This document shows, one piece after another, positions 2,725-59,482 of a stretch of 64,000 bases of DNA. Every line of letters starts with the position of its first letter. Within the stretch, counting starts at the first letter, position 1. Under the pieces are notes generated by a model. That model ran no database searches, had not been told where the DNA came from, and was given only the letters and a program-made list of their open reading frames with translations. The DNA lies in the NCBI GenBank assembly GCA_024137785.1, contig JAHRHZ010000223.1:12836284-12900283 (forward strand). The letters are read 5' to 3'. Position numbers and translations under genes: made by a program. This DNA comes from Ginglymostoma cirratum (Eukaryota).

Positions 2725-2875
2725 AAGATAGAAAATATTGGAAACATACAACATGTGAACCAGCAAGAAGAGAGGCTTTCAGGTCAGTGATTCTTTAATC
2801 AACATTAAGATCATTAACCTGACACTAATGCCATTTTCTTCCAAATTTCCAGCATCTAAGGGGTTTCTGACATTT
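2725..2875. mobile_element. Old degenerate fold-back (inverted pLTR pair) mini-element
   Basis: Centre tcaggtcagtgattctttaat-caac-attaagatcattaacctga (2779-2822) is an imperfect palindrome. The flank carries the 'atttccagcatct' tail motif shared with the 7541-7780 family. Confidence 0.45.
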
Positions 2876-2959
2876 GTTTGCTTTCAAATCCTTTCATCTC
2901 CTTTTAGTGCTCTGGTGCTTGGTGTTATCAGACAGATAGGCATCTGCTGCCTCTTTCAA

Positions 2960-3340
2960 CATGTGATGTTCCTCCTCTAACCATGGTGACCAGAACTATT
3001 GAACCATTCCAAATGTGGGCAAATCCATAGCCTGAGTAGGTATGGAATCACATTCTGTGTTTTGTCACCTACTTCATGAACCACAATCAATTTTGCCTTA
3101 TTTAGAGCTGTTGCATGCAATTGTTTCAATGGCCTACCTGCAAATACCTCCAAGTTCCTTTACCTGTTTGATGTCTTGAAGATCATAACTAAAATATAGT
3201 TCCAAAGTTTAATCTTCTTCCCAATCCCACCATTTTGCAACTATTGACACAGCAACATTTATCTTTTCCAAGACCAATTTCCTCCTTTATCGAAATCTTT
3301 GTGTACCTAATTAGTTTGGTCCTATTTGAAAACATCTGCT
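2960..3340 (-). mobile_element. Highly decayed CR1 LINE ORF2 fragment
   Basis: Motifs 'ggtgaccagaactattgaaccattccaaatgtgg' (reverse of HLEYCVQFWSP) and 'acatctgc' (reverse of ADD). Confidence 0.5.
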
Positions 3341-3384
3341 ATCTACGTTGTTACCACCAGTGAATTTTGACAGGCTTGTTCATT

Positions 3385-4020
3385 ATGCAACAGACCAAAC
3401 CTCCTCAAAATATGTTAAGGAGATAGCGTGGACCCTAACTTTTATCTTATTTAAAGGCAAGTGTAAGGTGCTGTGTTCCAGATGTGATTCAATTGGTCAC
3501 TTTACTAGGCTTTAACAAAACACACTTTATTCTTACACCACGGTTAAAACAAAAACAAAAAAGAAAGAATTAGCACAACTTTAACTCTTTCGAAATACTT
3601 TACTAAATAATATATTATTTAACTAGTACTCATCAACTGTTCCAATACAGCAGTATTCTGTAAACACACGTTTGGCATAGGCAAATTCAACAAAACATTT
3701 CCCTCACTTGCAATCACTTCCAGTCCAAAAGCCTGAAAGCATGAATCTCAAACCAGAGAAAGAACTCAAGATTTTGCAGCAGCAGGGACAGAGCTGTATG
3801 TAGTAGCTTCAACTCCAAAATCTCAACTTCAACAACTCAGAGCAAAACTAAAACCTTGGGTCTGTGCGAGCCTGACTCTATGCACTCAAGCTTCTTTTGT
3901 CTTTTTTTTTTAATAAACCAAAGCGATTTAGACTGTTTTCCATGGAGTAGACACCTTCTCACCAGGTTAACAACATCACTCTTCAAGAATGAATCCTTAA
4001 TAAAGGCACATATCATTACA
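3385..4020 (-). mobile_element. Possible solo LTR-like repeat
   Basis: About 630-bp block ending in 'cattaca' (TGTAATG on minus), with AATAAA on minus at about 3526. No TSD found. Confidence 0.3.
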
Positions 4021-4120
4021 GTCTCCACCCTGATTTCCAAATGAGTAAGATGCATCTAAAGTATAAAACTCCTAGAACAGATCCTTGGAGTGTCCTACAA
4101 GTTAACTATACAAGTTAACT

Positions 4121-5038
4121 TGCAGATGACACTAAGATTGGTGGAGTAGCAGATAGTGAAGGGGACTGTCGGAGAATGCAGCAGAATATAGATAGATTGG
4201 AGAGTTGGGCGGAGAAATGGCAGATGGAGTTCAATCCAGGCAAATGCGAGGTGATGCATTTTGGAAGATCTAATTCAACAGCGAACTATAAGGTAAATGG
4301 GAAAGCCCTGGGGAAAGTTGATGCACAGAGAGTTCTGGATGTTCAGGTCCATTGTTCCCTGAAGGTGGCAACGCAGTTGATAGAGTGGTCAAGAAGGCAC
4401 ACAGCATGCTTTCATTCATTGGACGGGGTATTGAGTATAAGAGTTGGCAGGTCATGTTACAGTTCTATAGGACTTTGGTTCGGCCACATTTGGAATACTG
4501 TGTACAGTTCTGGTCGCCACATTACCAAAAGGATGTGGATGCTTTGGAGAGGGTGCAGAGGAGGTTCACCAGGATGTTGCCTGGTATGGAGGGCGCTAGC
4601 TATGAAAAGAGGTTGAGTAGATTAGGATTTTTACGTTAGAAAGACGGAGGTTGAGGGGGTACCTGATTGAGGGCTACAAAATCATTAGAGGTATAGACAC
4701 GGTGGATAGCAAGAAGCTTTTTCCCCCAGAGTGGGGAACTCAGTTACTAGGGGTCACGATTTCAAGGTGAGAGGGGAAAAGTTTAAGGAAGATATGCGTG
4801 GAAAGTTCTTCACGCAGAGGGTGGGTGGTGCCTGGAACGCGTTGCCAGCGGAGGTAGTAGAGGCGGGCACGATAGCGTCATTTAAGATGTATCTCGACAG
4901 ATACATGAATGGGCAGGGAGCAGAGGGATACAGATCCTTGGAAAATAAGCGACAGGTTTAAATAGAGGAACTGGATCGGCGCAGGCTTGGAGGGCCGAAG
5001 GGCCTGTTCTGTGCTGTAATTTTCTTTGTTCTTGTTCT
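4121..5038 (+). mobile_element. 5'-truncated CR1 (HER1-like) LINE: RT C-terminus and 3' UTR
   Basis: Frameshifted ORFs ADDTKIGG…WAEKWQMEFNPGKCEVMHFG, LVRPHLEYCVQFWSP…LERVQRRFTRMLPG and TRGH…FFTQRV…WNALP. 3' UTR 'gggccgaagggcctgttctgtgctgtaa' with a ttcttg tail. Confidence 0.93.
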
Positions 5039-6674
5039 ATAACATTCAATGCCTCAATCAGGCAGGCTCCAGCGCACAAGTGAAACTTGACTACTGTACA
5101 AAATGATCATATCGAAGATTAACAGTTTGATCGTGAGTTTGATCAAATCAAATAACCACTTGCTTACAGACTGAATCGAAGGGATCAAAATATTACTGGG
5201 AACTGGGTGTCTTACTCGTTAGCTCCAGAAAACTCTGTAAATCAGCTGCTTGATGGGAGAAGTCACTCTTTCTTGAGAAGCTATAGGACATTTCTCAGTG
5301 CTATGAGCGGACGGTCTGCATCTTTCTATCTGCTTAAGTATCAACATGCAAATTCAGGGGTTCTGCCAATGCCATGCCAAAGGCACTTTTGTAAACGGGG
5401 ATCGTGTGTACTGTATATTCCTAATCATGCAACTTCAATTCCACTACAACAGATTTTCATTAGCTTGGTTTAGAGATTCTTAAAGATGGTGACAGGTTTC
5501 CACACGCATCGTAGACCTGCACGGCTATAAACAAAATCCACAGTCATAATTTTTCTTTAAAGGGACTTGTAAAAATTGAAATGCATTTTATAGAAAGAAA
5601 TTTATGCTTCTTGGCTTTTCAAAACAGAAAGTTGTAAAAGAAATGAAATTCTGATGAAGAAAATTTGAAATTCAATGAAAATCTACTGGTCACAATTAAA
5701 TAATGATTCATTTGCAGACCAAAATCAGAGCAGTGATCCATTGTTCCGTGCATAAGGAATAATGAAATATGCCTCGTTGGTAAGTGGAAATTGTAATTCT
5801 ATTGCAAGTGTTTAAAGAAAAATACAAGCACACAGATTCTATCAGCACCCAGGCTGGATCCTGTCAAAGGGCAGGCAGGGCATGATAGATCAAATGGCTT
5901 CCTTCTGTACTGTCAGATTCTCTGAATTTAATGTAATCTACTTTACAAAAAATAGCTAAATGAATTCAATTTAATCTACAGCTCTATTCTGTTGTGCATT
6001 ATAAAACCACACTATTTATTAAATGTTCCCTTTTCAGTTTAGAAAATATGGAACATTGCAGAGATTTCTGTTGCACAATTTGTGTGCAATAATGTCAGTT
6101 ATCAACTGGATTTTGCCATTGACGAGTCACTAATTCCAGCTTCCAGTCTCAAAAAGGTTAGAATGATTATTGTTTAGGCTTTTGTCCAACAACTTTTGCA
6201 CATTCCTGACTGAGCCACAGCTGCCTCAAGCAGGTCTTTATGGACCAAAACTTGAGTCTTTAATTTCCATAGTGGACAGGTTATCAGGTAGTTATCAATT
6301 CTGGTCAATGGAGGATATGTAAGATGCACATCATGCTCTTCATCACAGAAGACAGGCAAAAAGACAAAAGCTATACCATTGCACAAATGCAGAGCTCCTT
6401 AAGAAGATATACATGCAGGTAGATTAGCACTGCAAAGAAAAAGACCTAGCAAGTCAGCCTGATAACCAGCCTTCTACAATATACAATATACGTAGAAAAT
6501 GCTAGAAATAGTCAGCACATCAGGCAATACGTGATGAAAAAGTGAATTAAGTTAATCATGGTCCAGATCTTCCAACAGGAAGACGGGCTTCACATCAGGA
6601 CAACATAGAGGTCACTACACAGCTGATTCTGCAGGAAATTGAAACTTCCAAGTAAAAATGAATCAACATCTAGA

Positions 6675-6806
6675 CCTCGGAGGAAACACACACAGACACA
6701 GGGAGAATGTGCAAACTCCACACACAGTCGCCCAAGGATGGAATCGAACCTGGATCCTTGGTGTTTTGAGGCTGCAGTGCTAACCACTGAGCCACTGTGC
6801 CACCCC
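6675..6806 (-). mobile_element. HE1-type V-SINE, 5' tRNA-derived part
   Basis: Minus strand GTGGCACAGTGGCTCAGTGGTTAGCACTGC (A box), GGTTCGATTCC (B box), then 'tgtgtggagtttgcacattctccc'. Confidence 0.88.
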
Positions 6807-6977
6807 CTTAGTTGATGGAATCAACTGTCGCCAGGCAAAAGCAAGCTCAACATTCAGCAGACTCACCCACAGAAATCATGGAGTTGGTTTTAAAACAAAT
6901 ATCAAAATTGACCAGGCAGCAGTCATCACAACACTTCTTTACGAGGGATGGTCAACCACTGTCATGTCATAAAGCAA

Positions 6978-7105
6978 GTTCTGAAGGGTCACTGGTCTCG
7001 AAGCGTTAACTCTGTTTTCTCTCCAAATATGTTGCCAGACCTGCTGAATTTCCCCAATTTCTGTTTTTGTTTCTTTCAGATCTCCAGCATCTGCAGTTCT
7101 TTCTT
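6978..7105 (+). mobile_element. Single degenerate PLE terminal-repeat copy
   Basis: ttctgaagggtcactggtctcgaagcgttaac…gccagacctgctg…tccagcatctgcag, homologous to the arms at 7570-7780. Confidence 0.65.
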
Positions 7106-7254
7106 TTACATTAGATACATTCCACCTTCATGTTTAAGATCTATCAACAAAGTCAAGTAGCTGAACAAGCCCTAACTTTAAAGTTATTACATGATACCAC
7201 ATTGCAGAGATAGCTCACAGATCAATAATATTTTTACAGACTATTTTTTGTAGA

Positions 7255-7470
7255 GTAATAGAGTTTACAGCATGGAAAGAGGCCTTTCAGCCAAATCATG
7301 TCTGCACAAGTAATCAATCATCCATCTATTATAATCCCATTTTCTAGCACTAAGCCTATAACCTTCCACCCTTTGTTTACTGAGAATCTATTCTCTTCTG
7401 CCACAAAAAGTTTCAAACTCCGCTTCCACTGCCTTTTGAGAAAGAGGTGCAAAGACTCATGATCTTCTGT
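7255..7470 (-). mobile_element. Decayed CR1 3' end
   Basis: 'tacagcatggaaagaggcctttcagcc' is the reverse of the CR1/HE1 3' tail. Confidence 0.55.
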
Positions 7471-7540
7471 GGTGGAGAGAGAGAGAACAATCTTTGTCCT
7501 TTCCAGTGTTTGCTGTACAAAGCTGAGTCCTGCTCATGGT

Positions 7541-7780
7541 AAACCAAAAGAACTGCAAATGCTGTGAATCAGGAACAAAAACAGAAGTTGCTGGAAAAGC
7601 TCAGCAGGTCTGGCAGCATCTGTGAAGAAAAAAAATCAGTTAACATTTCAGATCCGGTGACCCTTCTGCAAATCCTTGTGAGGAAGGGTCACCAGATCTG
7701 AAATGCTAACTTTGATTTTTTTCTTCACAGATGCTGCCAGATCTGCTGAGCTTTTCCAGCCACTTCTATGTTTGTTCCTG
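7541..7780. mobile_element. Fold-back mini-element (two inverted PLE terminal repeats)
   Basis: Arms about 7570-7666 and 7683-7780 are near reverse complements. Flanking direct repeat tcctgctcatg (7528-7538) / tcctgttcatg (7776-7786). Confidence 0.85.
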
Positions 7781-8077
7781 TTCATGCCAGCTGGCCAGTA
7801 CAAAGGCAGTAGCGTGGTAAAGACACAGAGAGAGACGGAACTGGCCATCCCTTGGAATACATGTGAAAGGTGACTCACGTCTGATCATTAAACTGCAGCA
7901 CATAGATGTGGCCAAGAAATATAATTGAACATAAATAAAGTGCCGTGTAAATCTGTATTAAAGTGACTATAAAGTAGGTATTTGTCATCCAGAACATTGT
8001 AAGTCAGAGGTTGCTTATTGCAATTGAACTTGAACCTTCTCCCTGCTCCCCACATCTGTCATTGTAATTTCTTTTTT

Positions 8078-8200
8078 AATTATTTGTTCATGGGGTGTCG
8101 ATGTCACTGGTTGGGCCAGCATTTATTGCCCATCTCTAATTGCCCTTGAGAAGCTGATGGTAAGCTGCCTTCATGAACCACTGCAATCCTTTGGGTGTAA
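8078..8200 (-). mobile_element. 3' tail of a shark LINE/SINE family ('…ttctcaagggcaattagagatgggcaataaatgctggccc…')
   Basis: The same tail recurs at about 12870, 28600, 35270, 46190, 47620, 56310 and 56810. Confidence 0.7.
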
Positions 8201-10676: not shown

Positions 10677-10783
10677 CCATTCATCCAGTATCTGTTGTGT
10701 GGCCTCATTGCCTCGAGCTCGATTTCTGCAGGCTAGGACAACATGGGCTCCATGCAAAGCTAAAGAGCGTGCAGTCTCAAAAC
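10677..10783 (-). CDS. WWOX: Internal coding exon of WW domain-containing oxidoreductase (orthologous to human exon 5), N-terminal part of the SDR Rossmann fold
   Basis: Minus strand reads ...GTTTGTTTTGGTAG|GT TTT GAG ACT GCA...GAT GAA TGG|GTGAGT, with canonical acceptor and donor. It is 107 nt, phase 1 in and phase 0 out. Translation (G)[35 protein letters not shown] versus recalled human WWOX [36 protein letters not shown] gives 26/36 identity. Human exon 5 is also 107 nt and also ends at EW. Confidence 0.95.
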
Positions 10784-12952: not shown

Positions 12953-14609
12953 TCTCAGTTCAAAATCGCATACTAGCCATACCTTTGCATAAACGTTGAC
13001 CACAGTTGTTAAGGTAGAATTAATTTATTCACAAAAAGGTGTCACAGTGCTTTAACTGGAACTATCAGTGTTTTCTTCCTCAAATTTCAAAAAGGAGATC
13101 ACCCATAACCAACAACAGTACTTCACAGATAATACACCACACATTTCTGCTAGGACTTCAAGACTTCAAAGATTAAACTATATGCAGCGACTTCTAGAAT
13201 ATTCAAGTGTAAATAGGTAAAATTATACTTCTATTATTAATGCACAGTCAAGTGTCAAGCAGCTGTCCTCAAAAGAGAAAAGACCATTGTGCACAGTCTG
13301 TTTCTCTTGATCTGTCAATGTTACAATAGCATAAAGGCTTTGTGCATCACATAATTTCAAATACCTTGGGTTTAAAACGCCGAACACTTTTTCCACTGAA
13401 TATGAAATGATAGACCATTGGTATTCTGTCTGCATCAGACAGAGTAGCGACCAATAAGTTAGTTGATAAACACTGCAGAAGACAATCAATTCACTGTTGC
13501 ATTTTTTTCTGGATGACCAACTCAATAACAAAAGTGTGATACAACAGAATGAAAAACCATTATTCTAAACTAGCAAATCTCCAAAGTGGGGGAACAGTAG
13601 ATGACCTGTAAGCAGCACCAGCACAGAAATAAATCAGCTGATTTCTACAAACGATCACTCCTCTACAAGGTTCTTCTTGTGATGACAAACAAGTGTGTGG
13701 TATCATTGAACATTGACAGCACTCTGGTACCTTCAAAGGTTGACACGTTCAAGTTGTCAAACAACTGGAAGAAGTGCTCATAATTAAAATGCTCCTAACG
13801 AAGTTTTGTCACAAAGGCAACAATTTTGCTTTCCAGAATAACTCAAACAATTGAAACAGTGGACAAGTGAAATATCTATTTTGTTAAAAGGTACAATTGC
13901 AAGAATTATATGATCTTATTCAAGGCATTTGGGCTGAAATCAAACATATTTCTGTACTTTCACTTCAACATTATACATACAAAGTTTCCTTTTAATTCAT
14001 TTTCACATACAGAATGACCAATCCTAAATAATGGAGAAAAATCAAAAACTAAAATGAAAACCCTGAACCTCATAGCACATCGCTCCACCACCTCTGAGGA
14101 AGAAGCCACAGATCCTTCAGAAGAAGCACCAGCAAGGCTGCCTCCTGCACCCTCCATTAGCTCAAATACTAATACCTTGGAAGGTATTTTAGATAAATTA
14201 GAGTCAGCAGCAGAACTTCATAGAAGTGCACAAGCCAGCGTACAGGCAACAGGTAGGCACCTGAAAAATTGACAAAGTTTGTGGGACTGCATAGGCGTTG
14301 TTTGCACTCTGCTACGTCAGGCATATAAGGGGTTGGCTGCTTCCATGGGCGGTTTGGCAGCTGTCATGGACAGCCAGGTCCAGCAGGCTTAGTGGGATGA
14401 GTTACTGTGAACTTACTCCAGGTACCCCCTCCCGAGAAGCAGACAGCATGGTGCCAATAGGCACCCAGTCAGAGGAGAAATCACATACAGGCCCTCTGGT
14501 CACAAAGCGCTCCCTGCTACAGACTCCCTGATCCTAACTATCCTAAGCAACCAACTGATTGTGCTCAAGCTGATGACAGATACTACCCTTACGAGGAGGC
14601 ATACCAAAC

Positions 14610-14672
14610 TAAAAATGTTAACTCTACTTCTCTTCATTGATGCTGCCAGACCTGCTGCATTTCTCCAGCACA
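14610..14672 (+). mobile_element. Degenerate PLE terminal-repeat fragment
   Basis: 'aaaatgttaactct…gatgctgccagacctgctg…tttctccagca'. Confidence 0.55.
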
Positions 14673-15524: not shown

Positions 15525-15660
15525 AGAATTGAACAGGAGTCATATCTGACTCAAAACCTTAACTCCGTTTCTTCCTCCACAGATGCTGTCGGACCTGCTG
15601 AGTTTCTCCTGCGTTCTGTGTTTGTTTCAGATTTCCAGCATCCTGCAGCATTTTACTTTT
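15525..15660 (+). mobile_element. Degenerate PLE terminal-repeat copy
   Basis: 'gagtcatatctgactcaaaaccttaact…cacagatgctgtcggacctgctgagtttctcc…tttcagatttccagcatcctgcag'. Stem II gagtc/gactc is retained. Confidence 0.65.
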
Positions 15661-17617: not shown

Positions 17618-17718
17618 GTTCTGAGGAAGGGTCACCAGACCCAAAACGTTAACTGATTTTTTTTTTCTTCACAGATGCTGCCAGACCTCCGAGCTTTTCC
17701 AGCAACTTCTGTTTTTAT
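17618..17718 (+). mobile_element. PLE terminal-repeat copy with a decayed hammerhead-like core
   Basis: CTGAGGA-A-GGGTC-ACCA-GACCC-AAAAC-GTT (GAAA changed to AAAA at a CpG), followed by 'cacagatgctgccagacc…ttttccagcaact'. Confidence 0.75.
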
Positions 17719-18007
17719 TAGAGAAAAAGATGAGGTTTCTTGTGCTGCTGCCACTATTCCTATCCCCAACCTTTCATCATCTCAGAAAATAAGGATCCCG
17801 AGAAGAGAAAACCAGAAGTGGGGATGGGAGCAGAAAGAGAAAGAAAAGGCAGGGTCTTTTAAAAAAAACAGTGAAGATGATTAACAGAGTCATTTTTCCA
17901 TCTTTGCTCATTGTATGTATAGAAAAAACATAGAAGGTACAAATGGAGATAAATAATTGAACCCAGTCAGGCAATGTCCAATTTTACTCTCCAGCTGAAC
18001 AAACTGT

Positions 18008-18367
18008 CACAGAATCATAGAATCCCTCCAATGTGGAAACTGGCCATTCGGCCCAACAAGTCCACACCAACCCTCTGAAGAGCATCCCACCCAGGGCCAT
18101 TCCCCTACCCTTTCCCTGTAACCCTGCATTTCCCATAGCTAATCCACTTAACTTAAACACCTCTGTACACTATGGGCAATTTAGCACAGCCAATCCACCT
18201 CACCTGCACATTCTTGGACTGTGGGAGAGAACCGGAGCACCCAGAGGAAACCCACGCAAATACGGGAACAATGTGCACACTCCACACAGACGGTCGCCCA
18301 AAGGTAAAATCAAACCCGGGTCCCTGGTGCTGTGGGACAGCAGAGCTAACCACTGAGTCACTATGCC
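18008..18367 (-). mobile_element. Full-length HE1 V-SINE
   Basis: tRNA-like head, central domain 'gtgggtttcctctgggtgctccggttc…cccacagtccaagaatgtgcaggt', and CR1-like tail 'gggccgaatggccagtttccacattggagggattctatgattct'. Confidence 0.92.
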
Positions 18368-18551
18368 TCAGTCCTTATCACTTCCACCCATTTTACTCCC
18401 ATATGCCTTCAACCCTTTATCCTTCATAACCTGTCCACTGTAACCTTAAATATTGTTGTAATTTTTGCATTTAATCTCTAACTCTGGAAGTGAAATTCAC
18501 AGTTTCACGGCTCTGAAAAATTCTGCCCTCTACCTGAAATCTCTCTCACGT

Positions 18552-18812
18552 GGGCAGCATTGTGGCTCAGTGGTTAGCACTGCTGCCTCACAGCTCCAGG
18601 GACCTGGTTTGATTCCAGCCTTGGGCAACAGTCTGTGTGAAGTTTGCACCTTCTCCCCATGTCAGCATGGGTTTCCTCCAGGTCCAAAGATGTGCCGATT
18701 TGGTGGATTAGCCATGGTAAATGCAGGGTTACAGGGATAGGGTGGGGGGAGCTGGGATGCTCTTCAGAGCGTTAATGTGGACTTCATGGGCTCTTTCCAC
18801 ACTGTGGTGATT
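18552..18812 (+). mobile_element. HE1 V-SINE (internally deleted)
   Basis: gggcagcattgtggctcagtggttagcactgctgcctcacagc…ggtttgattcc…ttccacactgt. Confidence 0.9.
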
Positions 18813-18829
18813 TTATTTTAATGTGTTAT

Positions 18830-30592: not shown

Positions 30593-30664
30593 AATTTGGG
30601 TTAACAAGGTGTGGGGCTGGATGTACACAACAGGCCAAGCAGCATCATAGGAGCAGGAAAGCTT

Positions 30665-30692
30665 GACGTTTCGGGCCTAGACCCTTCATCAG
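30665..30692 (-). ncRNA. Minimal hammerhead-ribozyme-like core in the PLE 3' repeat
   Basis: CUGAUGA-A-GGGUC-UA-GGCCC-GAAAC-GUC. All conserved core boxes are present and helix III is the palindrome ACGU, but helix I is poor. Confidence 0.55.
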
Positions 30693-30890
30693 GAATGGGG
30701 GAGGGGAAGAGGGTTCTGAAATAAATAGGGAGAGAGGGGGAGGCGGATAGAGGAGAGGATAGGTGGAGAGGAGGCAGACAAGTCGAAGAGGCGGGGATGG
30801 AGCCAGTAAAGGTGAGTACAGGTGGGGGGGTAGGGAGGAGATAGGTCAGTCCAGGGAGGATGGACAGGTCAAGGGGGTGGGATGAGGTTA

Positions 30891-30990
30891 NNNNNNNNNN
30901 NNNNNNNNNNNNNNNNNNNNNNNNNNNNNNNNNNNNNNNNNNNNNNNNNNNNNNNNNNNNNNNNNNNNNNNNNNNNNNNNNNNNNNNNNN
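30891..30990. other. Assembly gap (100 N)
   Basis: Run of N inside the purine-rich PLE 3' UTR. Confidence 1.
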
Positions 30991-33143
30991 GTTGGGGGAG
31001 GGGAGATTTTGAAGCTTGTGAAATCCACATTGATACCTTTGCGCTGCAGGGTTCCCAGGCTGGATATGATTTGCTGTTCCTGCAGCCTTCGGGTGGCATC
31101 ACTGTGGCATTGCAGGAGGCCCAGGATGGACATGTCGTCTGAGGAATGGAAGGGGGAGTTGAAATGGTTCGCAACGGGGAGGTGCAGTTGTTTGTTGCGA
31201 ACTGAGCGCAGGTGTTCTGCAAAGCGGTCCCCAAGCCTCCGCTTGGTTTCCCCGATGTAGAGGAAGCCACAACGGGTACAGCGGATGCAGTATACCACAT
31301 TGGCAGATGTGCAGGTGAACATCTGCCTGATGTGGAAAGTCTTCTTGGGGCCTGGGATTGGGGTGAGGGAGGAGGTGTGGTGGCAGGTGTAGCACTGCCT
31401 GCGGTTGCAGGGAAAAGTGCCGGGTGTGGTGGGGCTGGAAGGGAGTGTGGAGCGGACAAGGGAGTCGCGGAGGGAGTGGTCCCTCTGGAAAGCAGATAAG
31501 GGTGGGGAGGGAAAAATGTCTTTGGTGGTGGGGTCAGATTGCAGATGGCGGAAGTGTCGGAGGATGATGCGTTGGATCCAGAGTTTGGTGGGGTGGTACG
31601 TGAGGACGAGGGGGATTTTTTTTGGTTATTATTGCGGGGACGGGGTGTGAGGGATGAGTTACGGGTAATGTGGGAGACACTGTCGAGGGCGTTCTTGACC
31701 ACTGTGGGGGGGGAAGTTGCGGTCCTTGAAGAATGAGGACATCTGAGATGTACGGGAGTGGAATGTCTCATCCTGGGAGCAGATGCGGCGGAGGCGAAGG
31801 AATTGGGAATAGGGGATGGCATTTTTGCAGGAAGGTGGGTGGGAGGAGGTGTATTCCAGGTAGCTGTGGAAGTCAGTGGGCTTGAAATGGACTTCGGTTT
31901 CTAGGTGGTTACCCGAGATGGAGACAGAGAGGTCCAGGAAGGAGAGAGAAGTGTTGGAGATGGTCCAGGTGAACTTCAGGTTGGGCTGGAAGGTGTTGGT
32001 GAAGTGGATGAACTGTTTGAGCTCCTCGTCGGAGCACGAGGCGGCGCCGATACAGTAATGGAGGAAGAGGTGGGGTTTAGGGCCAGTGTAGGTACGGAAG
32101 AGGGATTTTCTACGTAGCCTACAAAGAAAATTTGGGTCATGTTGAGATCAAAAGGGAGGTGGTATTGGGGGTCTTGAAAAACATTATGGTAGACAAGTCC
32201 CCCAGATTACTAAGAGAGGCAAGGGAGGACATTGCTGGGGCCTTGAGACAAATCTTTGTGTCCTCACTGGGGAGGTCCCAGAGGATTGGAGAATAGCCAA
32301 TGTTGTTTCTTTGTTTATGACGGGTGGCAGGGATAATCCAGCTAATTACAGGTCGGTGAGCCTTACTTCAGTGGTAGGGAAATTATTGGAGAGGATTCAC
32401 TTCTCCTTGGAAATAAGTGGGCGTATTAGCAAGAGGCAACATGGTTTTGTGAAGGGGAGGTCGTGTCTCGCTAACTTGATTGAGCTTTTTGAGGAAGTGA
32501 CGAAGATGATCAATGAGGGTAGGGCAGTTGTCTACATAGACTTCAGTAAGGCCTTTGACAAGGTTCCTCATGGCAGACTGATACACAAGGTAAAGTCACA
32601 CAGGGTCAGAGGTGAGTTTGCAAGATGGATAAAAACTGACTTGGTCATGGAAGACAGAGGGTAGCAGTGGAAGGGTGCGTTTCTGAATGGAGGGCTATGA
32701 CTAGCAGCGTTCCTCAGGGATCAGTGCTGGGACCTTTGCTATTTGTATATGTAGATATATCTAAATGATTTGGAGGAAAATGTAACTGGTTTGATTAATA
32801 AGTTTGTGGATGACACAAAGATTGACGGAATTGCGGACTGCGATGAGGACCGTCAGAGGATATAGATTGGTTGGTGACTTGGGCAAAGAGATGGCAAATG
32901 GAGTTTAATCCAGAAAACTGTGAGGTAATACATTTTGGAAGGTCTAATCCGGATGGAAAATATACAGTAAATGGCAGAACCCTTAAGTGTACTGATAGGC
33001 AGAGGAATCTGGGCGTACAGGTACAAAGGTCACTGAAAGTGGCAACACAGGTAGAAAAGGTAGTCAACAAGGCATACGGCATAACAAGGTGTAGAGCTGG
33101 ATGAACACAGCAGGCCAAGCAGCATCAGAGGAGTGGGAAAGCT

Positions 33144-33171
33144 GACGTTTCGGGCCTAGACCCTTCTTCAG
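33144..33171 (-). ncRNA. Minimal hammerhead-ribozyme-like core
   Basis: U-CUGAAGA-A-GGGUC-UA-GGCCC-GAAAC-GUC-A. Confidence 0.55.
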
Positions 33172-33172
33172 A

Positions 33173-33572
33173 NNNNNNNNNNNNNNNNNNNNNNNNNNNN
33201 NNNNNNNNNNNNNNNNNNNNNNNNNNNNNNNNNNNNNNNNNNNNNNNNNNNNNNNNNNNNNNNNNNNNNNNNNNNNNNNNNNNNNNNNNNNNNNNNNNNN
33301 NNNNNNNNNNNNNNNNNNNNNNNNNNNNNNNNNNNNNNNNNNNNNNNNNNNNNNNNNNNNNNNNNNNNNNNNNNNNNNNNNNNNNNNNNNNNNNNNNNNN
33401 NNNNNNNNNNNNNNNNNNNNNNNNNNNNNNNNNNNNNNNNNNNNNNNNNNNNNNNNNNNNNNNNNNNNNNNNNNNNNNNNNNNNNNNNNNNNNNNNNNNN
33501 NNNNNNNNNNNNNNNNNNNNNNNNNNNNNNNNNNNNNNNNNNNNNNNNNNNNNNNNNNNNNNNNNNNNNNNN
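33173..33572. other. Assembly gap (400 N)
   Basis: Run of N within the fold-back element. Confidence 1.
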
Positions 33573-33586
33573 GGAGCAGGAAAGTT

Positions 33587-33614
33587 GACGTTTCAGGCCT
33601 AGACCCTTCTTCAG
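33587..33614 (-). ncRNA. Minimal hammerhead-ribozyme-like core (second tandem copy)
   Basis: UU-CUGAAGA-A-GGGUC-UA-GGCCU-GAAAC-GUC-AA. Confidence 0.5.
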
Positions 33615-34119
33615 AAAAAAGTCTAGGCCCAAAACGTCAGCTTTCCCGCTCCTCTGGTGCTGCTTGGCCTGCTGTGTTCATCCAGCTCTACAGCTTGTTA
33701 TCTCAGATTCTCCAGCATCTGCAGTTCCTCCTATCTCTAAAGCATACTGCATGCTTGCCTTCATTAGCTGGGGCAGTGAGTTTAAAAATTGGCAGGTAAT
33801 GTTGCAGTTGTATAGCACCTTGGTTCAGCCGCATTTGGAATATTGTGTTCAATTCTGGTCGCCACACTGCCAAAAGGATGTGGCTGCTTTGGAGAGAGTA
33901 CGGAAAAGATTTACCAGAACGTTGCCTGGTATGGAGGGCATTAGCTATGAGAAGAGGCTGGAGAAACTTGGTTGTTTTCACAGGAACAACAGAGGTTGAG
34001 GAGCGACCTGATAGAGGTCAACAAGATTATGAAGGGCATGGACAGGGTAGACAGTCAGAAGCATTTCCACAGGGTACAAGGATAAAGAAGTATTATTACA
34101 TTTGGAAAAATATACATCC

Positions 34120-38720: not shown

Positions 38721-38780
38721 GGGTGGCACTGTGGTTAGCACTGCTGCCTCACAGCACCATGGGCCCAGATTCAATTCCAA
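38721..38780 (+). mobile_element. HE1 tRNA-derived head only
   Basis: gggtggcactgtggttagcactgctgcctcacagcacc…agattcaattcca. Confidence 0.8.
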
Positions 38781-47690: not shown

Positions 47691-47804
47691 TGTATACTAT
47701 CAGCAAAATAAATGCAAAACCACTTACAAAACTCTTGAATCAACAGTTGGCTTAGTTGGAACAGCATTGGGTAAGACCCTCTAAAAGAGGATGTCAAATC
47801 TAAA

Positions 47805-47985
47805 GAGATAGCAGGAACTGCAGATGCTGGAGAACTGAGATAACAAGGTGCAGAGCTGGATGAACACAGCAGGCCAAGCAGCATCAGAGGAGCAGGAAGG
47901 CTGACGTTTCGGGCCTAGACCCTTCTTCCTGCTCCTCTGATGCTGCTTGGCCTGCTGTGTTCATCCAGCTCTGCACCTTGTTTTC
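47805..47985. mobile_element. Fold-back PLE mini-element with a perfect 58-bp inverted repeat
   Basis: Arms 47842-47899 and 47925-47982 are exact reverse complements with a 25-nt loop. TSD tgtcaaatctaaa (47792-47804) / tgtcaattctaaa (47986-47998). Confidence 0.92.
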
Positions 47986-48297
47986 TGTCAATTCTAAATT
48001 CAGGTCTAACTCAGCTCATACTCTATACTCAGAATGGCAAGTAAATTTAACCCTCAAGTATCACTGATCCAAACAACATCTCAATAGCGTGCTTCACATT
48101 AATGCAGTTTCTGAAAAAATAAATTTTAGAAGTAAAATCAATGTAATTTTGCTTATTTCGACTCTTCTCTTCAAACTAAATTTATTTTACTCTAAGCAAA
48201 AAGTGTTAATAACAGAAGAAATCAAAATAACTGAAAAAAATCATGCCTGACAACTTGAGTAATTTGAATTGAAAGGTACAAGTATAATTATTAGAAA

Positions 48298-48385
48298 ATT
48301 CTGATGCAAGGACATTGACCTGTAACTGTAATGCTGCTTCTCTTGCTACAGATGCCTGCTGAGCAGTTCCTGCATTTTCCATCAT
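48298..48385 (+). mobile_element. Very old PLE terminal-repeat copy
   Basis: 'ttctgatgcaaggacattgacctgtaac…acagatgcctgctgagcagttcctgcatttt'. Confidence 0.45.
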
Positions 48386-48763
48386 TAACTTAGCATATTG
48401 CAATTCAATTCCATCTCAGTGAAAATTTCTAGCTTCTGGTCAGTTCCTTCATGGAGATCAGTACCCGATACTACTTTTTGGGAGAGGGAAGAGGGTGTAG
48501 GTGGAGGAACTATACATAGAGAGTTTCACTTATCACAGTTTACATGCTCCTTATGCTCAAGACCAAAATTCAAATTGTTTAAAAGGTATTTCCACTCACT
48601 CATTAATTGAATTCAGTTTAATTTCTGTCATGAGAGTATTTTCTGCTGGTATCACATATGCTCAATTGCTCCTAGTCCTTTGTTAAGTCCACTCAAACAG
48701 ATATTAAGAAATGAAATGAGGTGATCATTCCTTTGGCTCTTACCTTGCACTGTGCCTAATAAA

Positions 48764-52261: not shown

Positions 52262-52436
52262 ATTTCTATGTCTGGACAAAGTTAAGGTTTCAATAGGCAA
52301 TTTCTGTTTGATCTGGAGTCTACAACAGTTAAACCTTTTTGTAAGACACTGCTTGTGGCCAGTTGAGCAACAGGCAGGGCTCAAGCTCACAGAATCAATA
52401 ACAAGGAAGAAAGAGCAAGCCTTCAAGCTGTAGCAC
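52262..52436. repeat. Left arm of a ~175-bp inverted repeat
   Basis: Reverse complement of 53737-53910, e.g. gttgagcaacaggcagggctcaagctcacag versus ctgtgagcttgagccctgcctgttgctcaac. Confidence 0.92.
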
Positions 52437-52748
52437 GCTGGCTCAGTGGTTAGCACTGCTGCCTCACAGCACCAGGGACCCGGGTTCGATTCCACGCTCA
52501 GGTGATTGTCTATGTGGAGTTTGCACACTCTCCCCATGACTGCATGGGTTTCCTCCAGGTGCACCGGTTTCCTTCCACAGCCCAAAGATGTGCAGGCTGT
52601 GTGGACAGTCCATTTAAATTGCCTATAGTGTAGAGGGACGTGTTGATTAGGTGGGTAATAAGTGATGGGTTGAGGTGGAATGCTCTGAGGGTCAGTGTGG
52701 TCTTGGTGGGCCGAAGGGCCTGTTTCCACACCGTAGGGATTCTCTCTC
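52432..52748 (+). mobile_element. Near full-length HE1 V-SINE
   Basis: A box TGGCTCAGTGG, B box GGTTCGATTCC, V domain, and tail gggccgaagggcctgtttccacaccgtagggattct. Confidence 0.93.
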
Positions 52749-53736
52749 TGAAACTTGGTGCCATTAGGACAGACAGACAGGCTGGCTATCACAAGGATAG
52801 GCAAAATGCTGACTGTGGCATAATGTAGCAGGAGCTTGTCGAAAAGGGAAGCACAACAGGGTAGTTGAAGAGCATTCAACAACTTGCCAAATGGATAGAA
52901 ATCTTTGTAAACACAAAGACGACCTCACATTTTGTGTTGCCTACCTAGCACAAGGGAAATCTCAAACCAGCTTGAAAAGACAGTGGAGACAGAGAAAGGA
53001 TTATACAAACATGGAAGGGTTACAACACTGAAGAAGACCATTTGCCTCACAAAATCTAAGCTAGCACTCTATATAAATAATTTCACTGGTAACACTGTCC
53101 AGCGCTTCCCCTGTAATTCCCTTCCATTCAGGTGCTTACCCAGTTCCCACTTGCAGTGGTTCACGTAAATTTCAAGCAGTTACAACTGCCACAACTAAAT
53201 CTCACCCCATTACCCTTTTCGGACCTAGCTGTTGTGACCCTTCCGAGGATTAACAAAACTCAGAGTGCAGCCAAAGACTTTGTCTGGCAAGAACCGAAAA
53301 GGAGGAGCTAAATTCAAGAGCAAGGCCTCAATGATTACAATATCTGGATTAATAGCCATACACTGATTTGTACTTAGCTAAGATGACAGGGGAAATGAAT
53401 GCGTGATTAAAAGGAGCGGTGTGGAAAAGGGGGACCCTGGCACATGGAACACTGGTATCAGTATTATGACGGGAAGGAACTATACAGTTGAGACCAACTC
53501 CACCTGGTTATGAGAAGTTTTAACCAGCAAATTTAATTACAAATCAAGAGATTAAAGTACCGGTCGTAAACTCACTTATAATCAAAAATCACTAATTATT
53601 AGGGCAAAACTACTTGGGTTGAGTTTTGAGAAGAACGACTTACACAGTGGCTCAGAAATGACTGAATGTTCGCATAATTACACCTTACAAATTTCAGAGC
53701 CATTAAAAATGGAAGCTAGCTGCCAGGCAATAGACA

Positions 53737-53910
53737 GTGCTGCAGCTTGAAGGCTCGCTCTCTCTCCCCATTATTGATCCTGTGAGCTTGAGCCCTGCCT
53801 GTTGCTCAACTAGCCACAAGCAGTGTCTTACAAAAACATTTAACTGTTGTAGACTCCAGATCAACCAGAAATTGCCCACTGCAACCTTAACTTTGTCCAG
53901 ACCTGGAAAT
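53737..53910. repeat. Right arm of the ~175-bp inverted repeat
   Basis: Reverse complement of 52262-52436. Confidence 0.92.
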
Positions 53911-54279
53911 CAAAGTCCATTATGCCCAACATGAAACGTCCGAGGCATCAATCCACCAAATTTTTCGAACCTTACTACTTAACCTGCCCTTCCGTTCTAT
54001 AACTTATTTGTGTGTACTTGCATGAATGTTTGATTGTATGCAAGAGAGATTGCATGCTACTGAGAATGCTCCAACATATTCAGGACTAGGAACAAAATAT
54101 ACTAGGCTAACAGTTCTAAAAGCAAAGAAGAAAGATAAAGAAAAAGTAAATGGGGAGGAGGAACCTTAATGATCAAGGTTAAAATCACTCCAGTGATAAG
54201 AAACAAAAGATAAGCAGGAAGTGGGGTCTTTATTGCTTGAGTTAAACTAGAGAGAAGGATTCAAGACTGGAATGGGAGC

Positions 54280-56300
54280 TGTTGGCAGAAGCTACAAACG
54301 TAGTGAGTGCAGAGAAGGGACATAGCAAAGGAACACCTCAACTTTCATTTGATTGGAATAAGGAGAATCAGTCAAAAAAGTATGAACTTCCTGCCGCATT
54401 CAGGATAGTTTTCTGCAATATATTCTAGAAGTAGCAAAGGGACAGGCTACGTTACAAAATTTAATGAGTTAGATTTAGGTAACAGCTTGAGGAAGTGAAC
54501 ATTTATCCATAGTTATACATTGGCAAAGTTTAATGAGGTTTTTGAAAAATGGAAAGACAGAAAAAAAAATCTTGAAGATTCACTTCAATATAATGAGACA
54601 GAGCCTGTCAACAGGAAACTGGGCAAATTTGCTAATGGGCAAAAATAAAGACAACCAGTGGGTTTAAAAGCAACAATTCAATGTGATACTGAACCAGTTT
54701 ATACACTGACAGGAAAGAGATCCACTTGCCAAAAATCTACAGCCAAGGACAAATAAAGAGGTAATAGATATCTTAGAAGCGAAAGAAAAATACACAATTT
54801 TAAAACCATGTTCAAAAACATTGTTAAAACCACGTATCCTGGCAAAGGTAAGTGATGCAAAGTACAAAGGGTGGCAAAAAAGGCTAGTAAGCAACATAAA
54901 CAAAGAAAACATTGGCTAAAACAGTGACAAAACCCACAGACCAGATGGTTACCATTCCAATATTTTAAAGGAAGTGAGAACATTGCAGATGCACCAAACA
55001 TAACCTTTCAAAGTTTCCTCGATTTGGAACCCCTTTATTAGACTTAAATATTACACACACTATTCCATCTTTAAAGATGACTCATCAGTTAGGCAAACAT
55101 CTGGCTGTGAGTTTGACAGGGTTCATAGCTAAGGATAGAGTAAGTGAACATCCCGAAAATGTACAAATGATCAAAGAGACCTAGCATGGATTTGTATAGG
55201 GAACTTCACGCATGACAAACACAATTGATTTTTGAAGAGGTTACTAAAGTAGCAGATGGGAAGTGTATTCAGATTCTAGAAATGCCCAGAAGACATTAAA
55301 GTCTGTCATAAGAGGCAATTAGCTGAAGTTGAAGCCCATGGAACTGAAGTCAATTTATTAGCCTGGTTAAAAAACTGCCTAACAAGGCCAAAGATAAGGA
55401 ATACTAATAATGAAATGTTCTATTGGTAGGATGTGACTGGTGGTGCGCCACAAGAATCTGCACTGAAACCTCAACTGTTCAGTATTTTATCACCATATTT
55501 ATGGACTACTCAAATCACAGGAGTAGTTTCCAAGTTTGACAATGACACAAAAATGGATTCAGCTGTGATCAGTGTAAATGGGTGCATAAGGTACACGGGC
55601 AGATAATAGATTGTGAAGGGAACAGCCACATTTTAGGTCAATGCAGACAAATGAAAGATCATTCACTTTGGATGCAAAAAAAAAGGAGAACAAGGCACTT
55701 TCTAAACAAAAATAAAGCAGCAATGGAAGTCTAAAGAAATAAATCATTACAATATCACGTGTAGTTGCAGGAAATAATCTAAAAGGCTCATGGAACGTTG
55801 ACCTTGGTATGCAGGGCACTAAAATACAAAGTGGGTGCCCGTACAAAATTCTGGTTCCATCACACTATAGACCATTATCAGTATTTCTACGCAGCACATA
55901 TTAAGGATGTTACATTGGCCTTGGAGGAAATGCAGCATTTCGAAGAATTGATGCCTGGAACCTAAGGGTTAAATTACGAGATGCGATGAGTTAAATTCAG
56001 GTGACGTTCCTTGACATTCAGAAGGTAAGAGTTAGGGTAGATACAGAGAAACCATTTTTGCTACACAAGTAGCCTAGGACTTGGGACATTGTCAAAATAT
56101 TAGACCCACACTTTTCAGCAGTGAAATTAAAAAAAAACACTTCTACACAGAAGGTAGAAGTTTAGCAATCTACTGTTAATACCAAACTCATATTGGATCA
56201 CTTGTTAACCGTCAAACAAAGATTGACAGATTTTTGTTAGCTAATTGTATTGAGAGGTACGGAGCAAAAGGCGGTAGTGAATTGGTTTTTGGTTAATCAT
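54280..56300 (+). mobile_element. Ancient, heavily mutated CR1 ORF2
   Basis: Collinear relics: 'cagcatggatttgt'-like (QHGF) at about 55183, 'gtgactggtggtgcgccacaagaatctgcactg' (VTSGVPQGSVL) at 55433, 'tccaagtttgacaatgacacaaaa' (KFADDTK) at 55530, 'ggccttggagg', 'cacttctacacag'. Confidence 0.75.
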
Positions 56301-56799
56301 GGTATACAGGCCTCATTGGCAAGGCCAATGTTATTGTTCAACCTTAGCAATCCTTGAGGAAGTGGGGGCGAGATGCTTTCTTGAAGTGTTGCAGTTCTTA
56401 TTGTATCAATACAATAACAGTGCTACATTGCAAAGAGTTCCAGGATCTTAACCTGAAGAACTGGCAATACATTCCCAAGGAAGAAAGATATTCAACTTGG
56501 AAGCAAAGTTGCAGGTTCAGCTATGAATTCGACAAATTGAAGATCAAAGTTTGAAAAGCAATTCATTTCTGTTTCGGTTTTTCCCATATTATACAAGTTC
56601 ACCACATGCCAGCTGATCAATCCCATAAATCAACTCTTTTTTTGTCACATTTGGCAGGAGGTTTTAGAGCCGGATGTCACCAATCCCCACCCCCACCCAC
56701 AACTGACTCTTCCCATTTTTCTGGGCTGTGGACTGACACTGATGCACGCTGCTTTCCTGCACCTGTGCTTGGATTAACAATCTTAAATAGCCACGTTTT

Positions 56800-57120
56800 T
56801 AAAAATTCATTCATGAGATATGGGCTTCACTGGCTAGGCCAGCATTTATTGCCAATCCTTAATTGTCCAGACAGCAATCAAGAGTCAATCACATGCTGTG
56901 GGTCCGGCGCCACATGTAGGCCAGATCAGATGAGGATGGTACTTTGCTTCCTTAAAAAGTGAACCAGACGGGTTTTGCTGACAATTGGCAATGGTTTCAT
57001 GGTCATCATTAGGCTCCCAATTCCAGATTTTTATTGATTTCAAACTTTACCATCTGTCACGTGGGATTCGAACCAAAGTTCCTGGATAAAATGCCTAGCA
57101 ATAACAACACTAGGCCCTCA
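56800..57120 (-). mobile_element. tRNA-head SINE with the 'gggcaataaatgctggcctagccag' tail
   Basis: Minus strand: GGCCTAGTG (A-box-like), GGTTCGAATCCC (B box), body homologous to 36635-36930 and 46815-47100, and the shared LINE tail. Confidence 0.75.
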
Positions 57121-59365
57121 GCCTAAATGTTCTATTCTTGTGACAATGGTGCCATGGTATCGACAAATACAATTGTTTTCACTTCTGGGTTCAAATCAGA
57201 TGCAGCAAATGATTCCCTTCCCATAATTTGTAAAGGTCTAATTGAAATGTCAGGAATAGAATACCAACAAAGTATACTCCATAATTCGCAACTACAACAA
57301 ACTGTGAAACAGTGGGCATTTTAACTTCAAAACATATTACTAATCTCAGTAAATTAGTATAATTCATGTACTTTCACAGAACATAGATCACACAACATTG
57401 TTTTACAAGTTACATTTCAAGCAGATTTTACAAGAGTTGGATATGTTTCTACATAATTACTTCCTTGAAATGAAATCCAGAGTTCAAATACTGCATCTTC
57501 ACCAGAATGGAACTCAACATCATGGTACTTTTTTTTTAAAAGGTTTTGTTATCCAAGTTTCAAGTGCAACAGACAATAAAGGAGAACACCATAAAGTCAG
57601 ATATTGATCAAAAACTTCTGTTCAAATTAAAAAACAAGGAACATCCTTAATTGGATTTATACAACCACAATAACTATTCACAAGACCACAAACTGCTATC
57701 TTAAAACCGAGCCCAGTGAACGAAAAACAATAAAAAGAGATTTGCACAGAAGCCTAGCAAAGAACCTTTACAACATCACAAATTGAACAATATTGTGTTA
57801 TACTGATACAATATTAAGTTTATACAATAACTAGAAAAATAAATTAATCCACAACTGAAATTTTAAAAACTTAAAACAATTCCAAATATTCCATTATGAT
57901 CTCTTTCAATACATAATTTGAGAACTGTTAATACTAAGAGAATGAACACTGCCATTAAGACAATTCTTTTGAAAACTGTAAGAGTCCACAAGATTATTAT
58001 GTAGACAAAGATGCTCTTTATGTAAAATACAAGACATAAATAGCTTCAGAATCAAAATCTCAAAAATACTCACAATCATCAAATCAAGCATCATACATGT
58101 ATATTTGTTAAACGGGTGTTATCAGAAGGAATAGCTGAGATGGAATGTATTGTGATGAGCCAGAAAAATACCATGCTTGCTTATGTACTGCATATACATA
58201 ACTTAAATTTCAACCAGACCTTAATAATTACAAAACCTACATTTACATAATACTCCTTAGCAAAAAGGCAGCAATCTCAGTGCATTTCATCAGGAGAAAA
58301 ATGGACAGAGCAAAAAAAGGAAAATAGGAAAAATTGGAGAGGCAAGGATTAGGATCAAAGGCACAGTTGGAGGGATAAGAGTTTTCAGGCATTTTGTAAC
58401 TTTTGAAGAAAGAAACACAAAGGGGAGTTGAATCAAAGCACATTTCCATCCCTGGGCCATTATGGCACATCCCATGTAGTCAGTGCAGTATCAGTGGAGA
58501 TGATCTGCGACCAGGTCATCTGTGCTCTTGGCTCCAGGTAATGTGTGGCCTGAAAAACTGGAGAGAAAAAAAGAGATTTTGTAATCTCACAAGAAGTTTA
58601 TTTATTCTTTCATTGTTGGTATTTTATGGAATGCACATGACAATTCTAGATTCTAAGTTAATAGCTATCTTGAAATAAAGCTCCACTTTCCTGTGACGGA
58701 AATCAATTTTGATTCCAAGTAGGGTTTTGCAAAGAACAAGACTGCCCTCTAATGGAAAGAACCATTCAGGGCTGTCAAGACAATATCTAAACTGCAGCAT
58801 GAAACTTATCCACATTGTTTCCTACTGGAAATATTTAAAGCTTTACCTACATTTTAGAAAAATAAATCATTAATTATTTCAAAGCTAAGTCCTAAACATG
58901 TGGGATTCCCCCACTACCATCTTCAAATGGTTTAACTTATGATGAGCATAATCCCATTCAAGGGATAAGCACATTATTCCTAAAACACAAACATTGCTTT
59001 CTTAATTGCTCAGAGAATATCTCAAGATAATCTTGCACGATTAAACAAGATGAAAACATTCCCTCACCAAGGAAAACTCAAAAATCCATATTTTGCGTTT
59101 CATTGTATGGGGCTCCGTCATGACATAGGTAACTTTGCATAAGATGCTCTTTGCTTTTGGTTACTTTTTTAAATGAGCTTTAATAGTGTGTGAGTGTGTT
59201 ATCACTGCCTCTGCATCTTTGCATCCTATTTATTGCATTCTGCCAGGATTTCACAGCTGCCATTATCAGCTGTCTCAGTGACCACATCATGAGGTCTTGA
59301 GTATAGCCCTTCAATGATTAGTGTACAGGTTTTCAGCTCCATTTACAAATACCTTTGAAAATGAA

Positions 59366-59482
59366 GTGGAGATGCCAGTGTTGGACTGGGGTGGACCAAG
59401 TCAGAAATCACTGTGCCAGATTATAGTCCAACAGGTTTATTTGAAATCACAAGCTTGCGAAGCACTGCTCTTCATCAGGTGA
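59366..59482 (-). mobile_element. PLE terminal repeat (second family) with a hammerhead-like motif at 59447-59482
   Basis: Minus: UCAC-CUGAUGA-A-GAGC-AGU-GCUUC-GCAA-GC-UU-GUGA, then 'tttcaaataaacctgttggactataa…ccagtccaacactggcatctccac'. Confidence 0.75.

Follow-up and report, generated by a model that had tools for sequence, protein, structure and literature searches.

The window analyzed here, a stretch of 64,000 nucleotides of contig JAHRHZ010000223.1 from the shark Ginglymostoma cirratum, contains many copies of a short hammerhead-bearing repeat, which the original prediction took for non-autonomous, ribozyme-marked mini-elements mobilized by Penelope-like elements (PLEs). Our work demonstrated that this repeat is the 5' untranslated region (UTR), or pseudo-long terminal repeat (pLTR), of an autonomous Neptune-type PLE, that a mini-copy consists of this element's first 95 or 130 nt, and that the "tail" present on some copies is simply the 35 nt that follow. 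The copies are very probably by-products of the element and not a replicating fold-back family. We hypothesize, with a probability of about 0.65 for the mechanism as a whole, that they arise as dead ends of the element's own insertion: a staggered cut is made, reverse transcription is primed internally at two sites and runs off the RNA when primed in the 5' pLTR, and the two cDNAs are joined.

The short repeat is the 5' end of a Neptune-type element

Repeat copies, here called arms, were searched with iterated nhmmer profiles seeded by natural copies, at a cut-off of E<=1e-3 and with reversed sequence as the control. Counts refer to a 723-kb sample of the 4.36-Gb genome that includes 63.5 kb of the window; all-N stretches were dropped from the sample (19 of 40 single 10-kb stretches and 3 of 8 100-kb blocks). 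The window arms fall into three PLE families, A, B and C, the first two of which are related, and each family has copies joined to a body that bears a GIY-YIG domain.

A search with the most N-terminal piece of the open reading frame (ORF) identified 30 loci, and in 8 of them the 5' end extends into the repeat (L257 to L259, L261, L268, L274, L278 and L280). The order there is repeat, tail, 5' UTR and an ATG at +166, positions being counted from the CUGA of the hammerhead. Because the repeat runs on through the tail into the 5' UTR and the ATG, the mini-element is the autonomous element's own 5' end, and the PLE origin that had been proposed is confirmed. Two of the 8 loci (L259 and L280) are partial tandems, and the non-tandem ORF-bearing copies L261, L268 and L278 begin at -4/-5; among the others, one is joined to the body through a deletion and two start within the repeat, one of them at an N gap. 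Subfamily signatures are common to the mini-copies and the ORF-attached copies.

The PLE ORF in the window contains a GIY-YIG domain (PF01541, E 1.7e-6) preceded by a Cys-rich linker, C-x4-C-x2-C, and RVT_1 was matched in L197 and L194 at E 6e-6, below the Pfam cut-off. A Cys-rich, Zn-finger-like linker between the reverse transcriptase (RT) and the endonuclease marks Neptune and Nematis (PMC8557442). By its single RT and GIY-YIG ORF and this linker, the parent is classified from its sequence as an endonuclease-bearing PLE of the Neptune type; every parent copy found is broken or truncated. The family A ORF (L259, L257, L258) has a helical-looking N terminus followed by a variable Ala/Pro/Thr/Asp-rich tract ahead of the RT, a tract that recalls the low-complexity inserts of rotifer PLEs.

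Copies share a sharp 5' end and stop at two 3' sites

Young family A arms in unselected sequence end at two 3' peaks about 35 nt apart, at about +91 to +99 and +127 to +131. Their 5' ends cluster as well: 39 of the 90 that could be assessed lie in -8 to +2, 3 in -14 to -9, 3 in -139 to -15, 18 beyond -140 and 27 inside the repeat. The best genome matches behave alike, with 5' ends in -7 to -1 for family A (18/25), in -8 to 0 for family B (20/27) and in -10 to 0 for family C (22/26), and the common 5' end thus stands 4 to 7 nt ahead of CUGA in all three families. In body-attached copies a TATA-like box lies 29 to 31 nt ahead of the A at -4 (families A and B) or -7 (family C), with a match to the initiator (Inr) in 3 of the 4 copies examined. 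Transcription presumably starts at -4/-7.

Ordinary 5' truncation would offer another origin for this boundary. In that case RT, starting from the 3' pLTR of a tandem transcript, would usually come to a halt at the hammerhead's upstream edge or at a pyrimidine tract, and the common 5' end would be the stall site. Heavy 5' truncation is known for PLE insertions (PMC8557442), in families A, B and C alike the boundary matches stem I on its 5' strand, and neither a cap signature nor an RNA start was observed. However, the enzyme would need to stop after unwinding the structure and not before, the TATA/Inr-like spacing recurs in three families despite different upstream sequence, and ORF-bearing copies begin at the same base. 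Moreover, a Poseidon-like family has a good stem I yet shows no pile-up of 5' ends. Taken together, we consider stalling rather unlikely.

This Poseidon-like family, D, is a fourth hammerhead family and lies at the end of a young PLE (L064:250-377, L085:1243-1716, L281-L310). It has two 3' ends like the other families (21/30 at +75 to +79 and 8/30 at +112 to +115) and a 36-nt tail.

Fold-back pairs carry one tail and unique junctions

Head-to-head pairs account for 106 of the 242 arms (53 pairs, including two old ones with mixed family calls), and tail-to-tail neighbors number only 3. Exactly one tail is present in 44 of the 50 pairs in which both outer ends are readable. Target site duplications (TSDs) of at least 11 bp flank 33 of 50 pairs but 0 of 150 random sites, with a mode of 14 bp when some slack at the boundary is allowed; this is the count of fold-back copies with TSDs that the original prediction had called for. 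All 53 junction configurations are distinct, the best match between junctions being 18 to 34 of 40 nt, and hence the pairs are not amplified copies of a master mini-element. Perfect palindromes occur at some junctions.

Inverted arms with TSDs in short, non-coding and abundant copies might suggest MITE-like DNA transposons (miniature inverted-repeat transposable elements), with the arms as terminal inverted repeats. Yet the arms are unequal, since only one has a tail, each junction is different, and an RT/GIY-YIG element has this sequence as its 5' UTR, and we give this explanation practically no credence.

The arms of a pair mostly belong to one subfamily: 20 of 264 diagnostic sites are discordant (23 pairs), compared with 38.6% in random pairs. 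The partner was the best match in only 2 of 14 cases and is thus rarely the nearest relative, so that there is no sign of homogenization between arms. Two pairs differ at 3 to 4 of 15 diagnostic sites, one in the L102-L109 region (C19 88579-88809) and one at L068 (C223dn 76406-76623), and were possibly copied from two different source RNAs.

How far the two arms extend bears on whether one could be a copy of the other. Of the 44 pairs with one tail, 19 have an untailed arm that extends 10 nt or more further 5' than its partner, 8 have a tailed arm that does so, and in 17 the arms end within 10 nt of each other. In the 19 pairs the untailed arm has 5' sequence absent from the tailed arm, which in turn has the tail; neither arm can copy the other, and two RNA-templated priming events would therefore be needed. 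This is difficult to reconcile with self-priming of a single nucleic-acid strand, which was proposed from junction palindromes in rotifer PLEs (PMC3846280), there with an antisense template, a version on which these pairs bear only indirectly. Such self-priming would fit the agreement in subfamily within pairs and the palindromic junctions seen here, but the two discordant pairs speak against it as well, and we regard it as highly improbable.

Inverted ends with one tail also flank longer copies of up to 2.6 kb (L196 and L200), L196 having a tiny inverted tailed arm. At two sites, L079-L080 (block C223up 4462-4822) and L067 (C223dn 68639-69012), 124 to 135 nt of unrelated DNA lie between the inverted arms and may be filler or captured host DNA.

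The hammerhead covaries between families and decays in the copies

A minimal-hammerhead descriptor run on the real sequence and on 20 shuffles gave 3 matches in the window and 58 in the 723 kb, with 0 to 1 in each shuffle; the 8 Rfam matches at E<=1 included no hammerhead family, only sub-threshold microRNA hairpins and a small nucleolar RNA. Stem I varies by lineage (UU(U)/AA(G), AGUU/AACU, UCAC/GUGA, UGCA/UGC(G)), as does stem II (GGGU/GCCC, GGGUC/GACCC, GGAGC/GCUCC and, in family D, GUUACC/GGUAAC with 7 bp), and the stem III palindrome is ACGU in families A, B and D and AGCU in family C. Among 18 intact copies chosen by hand from the four lineages, 92.2% of cells are paired and 7 of 8 pairs have two-sided changes; since an intact core was the basis of the choice, this result is not independent of the descriptor. 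Judged from these alignments, covariation between families points to the minimal type I hammerhead layout.

The layout that the original prediction described thus holds for the four lineages at the family level, but in the window the core and stem II are intact in only 3 of 15 arms (30692, 33171 and 33614), the rest being mutated in the core or cut; in the sample the figure is 53 of 242. Similarly, its covariation of stem II is real between families, but several of the pairs quoted for it were wrong. GGGUC/GGCCC would leave a 2-nt loop, the true stem being GGGU/GCCC with a 4-nt loop; GGCCC and GACCC differ on one side of the stem only; and GAGC/GCUU is not a subfamily stem of its own but a mutated copy of GGAGC/GCUCC.

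Among copies the core is not conserved above the rest of the repeat, contrary to what selection on the ribozyme would predict: 70 core substitutions were observed against 64.3 expected in 217 arms, and 28 against 18.6 in 59 unselected arms. A crude test had suggested excess conservation (3.3% versus 5.2%, p=3e-4), which was gone once the comparison was matched for base and left out CpG columns and those diagnostic of subfamilies. The copies decay neutrally, without selection on the ribozyme among them. Both cores are intact in 4 of the 53 pairs, and the paired hammerheads lie on opposite strands; the predicted fold (-138 and -156 kcal/mol) encloses both within a long duplex, for which reason a cis dimer should not be able to form in a fold-back. 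The genomic ends bear no cleavage footprint at +28, with 1 of 90 5' ends at +28 and 6 of 90 in +25 to +33.

These data bear on whether the copies are non-autonomous elements similar to retrozymes or short interspersed elements (SINEs), in which the PLE protein would act in trans to copy short transcripts from mini-copies or remnants, and selection on the ribozyme would maintain them. Several observations fit. The copy number is very high (245 arms in 723 kb), solo arms have fixed ends and in 15 of 61 cases TSDs of at least 11 bp, and remnants retain the putative promoter, so that their short transcripts may have served as templates in trans; in addition, pLTR-derived hammerhead monomers and tandem retrozymes have been described, one chondrichthyan being among their hosts (bioRxiv 10.64898/2026.07.22.740005). 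Against this stand the unique junctions, the core kept in a minority of arms with no excess conservation after base matching, the loss of the upstream TATA from mini-copies, the signatures shared with ORF-attached copies and the lack of tandem arrays here. Such elements are improbable, and the self-propagating, ribozyme-selected kind originally envisaged is not borne out by 53 distinct junctions, neutral core decay and so few pairs with two intact cores.

Proposed origin of the copies

We hypothesize that a transcript begins at the Inr-like A about 30 nt behind the TATA-like box, which the preceding unit of the tandem carries in its 3' end. The GIY-YIG domain would make a staggered cut, and both 3'-OH ends would prime reverse transcription within the RNA, one at a proximal site (+92) and the other at a distal site (+128). 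When priming occurs in the 5' pLTR, the enzyme would run off the RNA 5' end after about 100 to 130 nt, like a retroviral strong-stop product. Two cDNAs joined wherever they meet would give a fold-back, and a single surviving cDNA a solo arm. The hammerhead would be kept in active lineages and be a passenger in the copies.

The start of transcription, run-off and twin priming are suggested by analogy with in vitro work on PAc, a Poseidon element of Anolis (Frangieh et al. 2024, PMC11167929). There, as would be the case here, both strands are cut and extended and two internal RT starts bracket the tail; uncleaved RNA is used, a dimer is predicted, and no RNA-seq ends occur at the cut site. PAc differs in belonging to the Poseidon clade, with an ORF that starts inside the hammerhead, whereas in the Neptune-type element the ATG lies 166 nt downstream and both start sites are in the 5' UTR. 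A more specific proposal has even odds in our judgment: that Neptune-type PLEs mass-produce strong-stop-like run-off cDNAs from a capped 5' UTR, with a two-enzyme complex using the proximal site on one strand and the distal site on the other.

Several points weigh against the proposed mechanism. The in vitro support comes from a Poseidon element and not from Neptune, and family D, the Poseidon-like family of this shark, has scattered 5' ends with 0 of 30 within -15 to 0, so that the run-off rule is not general. Pairs without any tail (5/50) or with two (1/50) also exist, the 5' ends of the ORF-bearing copies L261, L268 and L278 were inspected over about 1 kb only, and the promoter of the Drosophila virilis element is reported to be internal and TATA-less (PMC2377424). 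Poly(A) RNA-seq data (of which run X22 comprised 11 reads and X1 contigs) showed no pile-up of read starts or ends; the reads are dominated by copies inside host transcripts, 85% of them running on into unlike sequence. Nor did an untemplated G derived from a cap stand out: G was found in 6 of 27 ends in family A (background 0.23), 3 of 8 in family B and 7 of 9 in family C, or 16 of 44 when pooled (p=0.06). The start site is therefore a putative one.

Two candidate signals were rejected. The 7 of 9 in family C is the complement of a short inverted arm and not a cap signature, and loose read ends near +28 in run X21 were traced to another subfamily's indel and one host transcript.

Comparison with known systems

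Solo and inverted pLTRs, tails and hammerheads on opposite strands are published features of PLEs. For endonuclease-bearing PLEs, direct or inverted pLTRs, a tail of 30 to 40 bp at one end, TSDs and solo pLTRs have been described (PMC3846280, PMC8557442, PMC2377424). The copies studied here share with these insertion units the head-to-head inverted 5'-truncated copy, the tail on one arm, the TSDs, the solo pLTRs, host DNA caught between arms and TATA/Inr-like motifs near the pLTR, and they show the tandem pLTR, inverted copy, tail and TSD by which such units are recognized. They differ in that most insertions are 95- to 130-nt ends alone, at about 34 arms per 100 kb, and in a TSD of about 14 bp compared with 8 to 10 bp in rotifer PLEs. 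The sharp common 5' end has no counterpart in the insertion units described in excerpts of these three papers.

The motif itself resembles the metazoan PLE hammerheads of Cervera and de la Pena 2014 (PMC4209133) in CUGANGA, one unpaired base, G10.1-C11.1, a palindromic stem III and a short stem I; in family A, in contrast, stem I is weak (2 to 4 bp). That work reports thousands of motifs per genome in coelacanth and Xenopus, mostly single, and attributes pairs on opposite strands 100 to 700 bp apart to truncated PLEs. Its supplement file 2 contains no shark term, file 1 being outside that search. Dimer cleavage of PLE hammerheads was reported by Lunse et al., as summarized in a review (PMC6765202).

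Non-LTR retrozymes (bioRxiv 10.64898/2026.07.22.740005; PMC7229834) are likewise pLTR-derived and non-coding, with a type I hammerhead and dispersed monomers. Retrozymes are head-to-tail tandems with a hammerhead in each unit, whereas the copies in our sample are solos or head-to-head pairs with mostly broken cores, not head-to-tail units with complete hammerheads. The fold-backs also lack the shared master structure and the selection on an RNA motif that would define a SINE- or MITE-like family.

Searches of titles and abstracts, with subscription papers, Repbase and Dfam outside their scope, returned nothing on shark PLE hammerheads, twin priming in PLEs or run-off and strong-stop products. 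The 5' pile-up at a TATA/Inr-like site and the 19 of 44 pairs that cannot be simple cDNA fold-backs were not found in the literature searched. The families may already be catalogued in Repbase, Dfam or the supplements of bioRxiv 10.64898/2026.07.22.740005.

Copies in the window and their host gene

The window contains 13 arms of families A and B and 2 of family C, with no matches in the reversed sequence. The features are as follows.

605 to 695, plus strand: family C terminal repeat, decayed, with an internal deletion and no intact core (nhmmer E 1e-14)
2725 to 2880, no strand: imperfect inverted repeat, perhaps a very old fold-back, family not assignable (RNAfold hairpin; profile E 1.2-9.9)
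6977 to 7103, plus strand: family B solo arm with tail, start at -4, broken core (nhmmer profiles)
7541 to 7780, both strands: family B head-to-head pair with a tail on the left arm but not on the right, both cores broken, 11-bp TSD with 1 mismatch
10677 to 10783, minus strand: host exon of 107 nt bounded by AG/GT, similar to short-chain dehydrogenases/reductases (SDR; weak match to Pfam adh_short, E 0.095)
14589 to 14670, plus strand: old family B-like arm, decayed (nhmmer profiles)
15529 to 15652, plus strand: old B-like solo arm with tail, stem II GAGUC/GACUC, broken core (nhmmer profiles)
17618 to 17719, plus strand: family B solo arm, untailed, start at -3, 12-bp TSD-like flanks, G12 mutated
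30602 to 32147, minus strand: 5'-truncated family A PLE with RT thumb region, Cys-rich linker, GIY-YIG, TATA/Inr-like region and 3' terminal repeat
33081 to 33738, both strands: family A inverted structure, left arm untailed, right arm tailed, with an extra partial arm at the edge of an N gap
47804 to 47986, both strands: family A head-to-head pair, arms +2 to +128 and +31 to +93, no intact core, 13-bp TSD with 1 mismatch
48298 to 48396, plus strand: very old B-like solo arm (nhmmer E 5e-7)
59362 to 59482, minus strand: family C solo arm with tail and a mutated GAAA box

The terminal repeat of the family A PLE (30602-30700) is joined to the PLE body and has an intact hammerhead core at 30692-30665. 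The profiles recovered every position at which this repeat had been claimed to recur except 2725, which no profile assigns and which accordingly does not stand as an inverted pair of the repeat; the copies at 59366 and about 600, considered relatives of the 30602 repeat, belong to the separate family C. Inverted family A arms are indeed present at 33083, but the supposed pair is three arms around a 400-N assembly gap (33173-33572), with two intact cores on the minus strand (33171 and 33614). The reported TSD-like flanks were found at 7541 and 47804 and, identical at 11 of 13 positions, at 33081; beyond the pairs, the solo arm at 17618 has them too. A weak extra match to the A/B profile at 6495-6578 on the minus strand (E 0.07-0.9) may represent one more very old arm.

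The window is intronic on either side of the exon at 10677-10783. A WW-domain exon lies 20 kb past the window on the same strand, and a second SDR exon is also beyond it; a PDB search with the WW exon matched WW domains and returned no WWOX entry. This exon set is consistent, by its sequence, with WWOX, which we take to be the host gene, with 10677-10783 presumably as its exon 5. The repeats thus lie in introns that fit WWOX, as the original prediction held, but they are not specific to this gene. The window has about 24 arms per 100 kb (15 in 63.5 kb), compared with 34 per 100 kb in the sample (245 arms), and the first profiles gave 18.9 per 100 kb in the window and 22.8 to 58.5 in five other blocks. 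The WWOX setting is incidental, as arms are no denser there than in other parts of the genome sample. In the 100-kb block that follows the window and surrounds the WW exons (L061-L070), arms are about twice as dense as in other blocks, at 58 per 100 kb compared with 19 to 29.

Other repeats in the window include decayed RT fragments of long interspersed elements (LINEs) resembling CR1/L2 (4119-4730, 25398-27030, 32146-34070, 38780-39400, 41616-42640, 49630-50300 and 61850-62350), one of which embeds the fold-back at 33081, and a tRNA-like SINE family with several inverted copies (6719-6803, 18100-18750, 38723-38779, 52262-52605 and 53771-53910).

Implications

The object itself is ordinary: known end products of PLEs with a known ribozyme motif and no relation to the function of WWOX. 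For annotation, our data are a warning against labeling such stubs as MITEs, as microRNA hairpins (in spite of weak sub-threshold Rfam matches) or as active intronic ribozymes.

The value of the finding is mechanistic and practical, in that this genome holds very many young events whose ends can be measured. The formation of inverted pLTRs and tails of PLEs was called undefined in PMC8557442, and the sharp common start and the one tail per pair hint at the insertion route of Penelope elements. Direct predictions for in vitro tests follow from the single tail per pair, the TSD of 14 bp and the fixed 5' end. Rough extrapolation from the sample, with masked stretches outside it, gives over a million arms genome-wide. 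If the more specific proposal of mass-produced run-off cDNAs is true, these roughly one million stubs would be a population-scale record of how PLEs insert, and the tail and the inverted pLTR would be explained as one twin-priming event.

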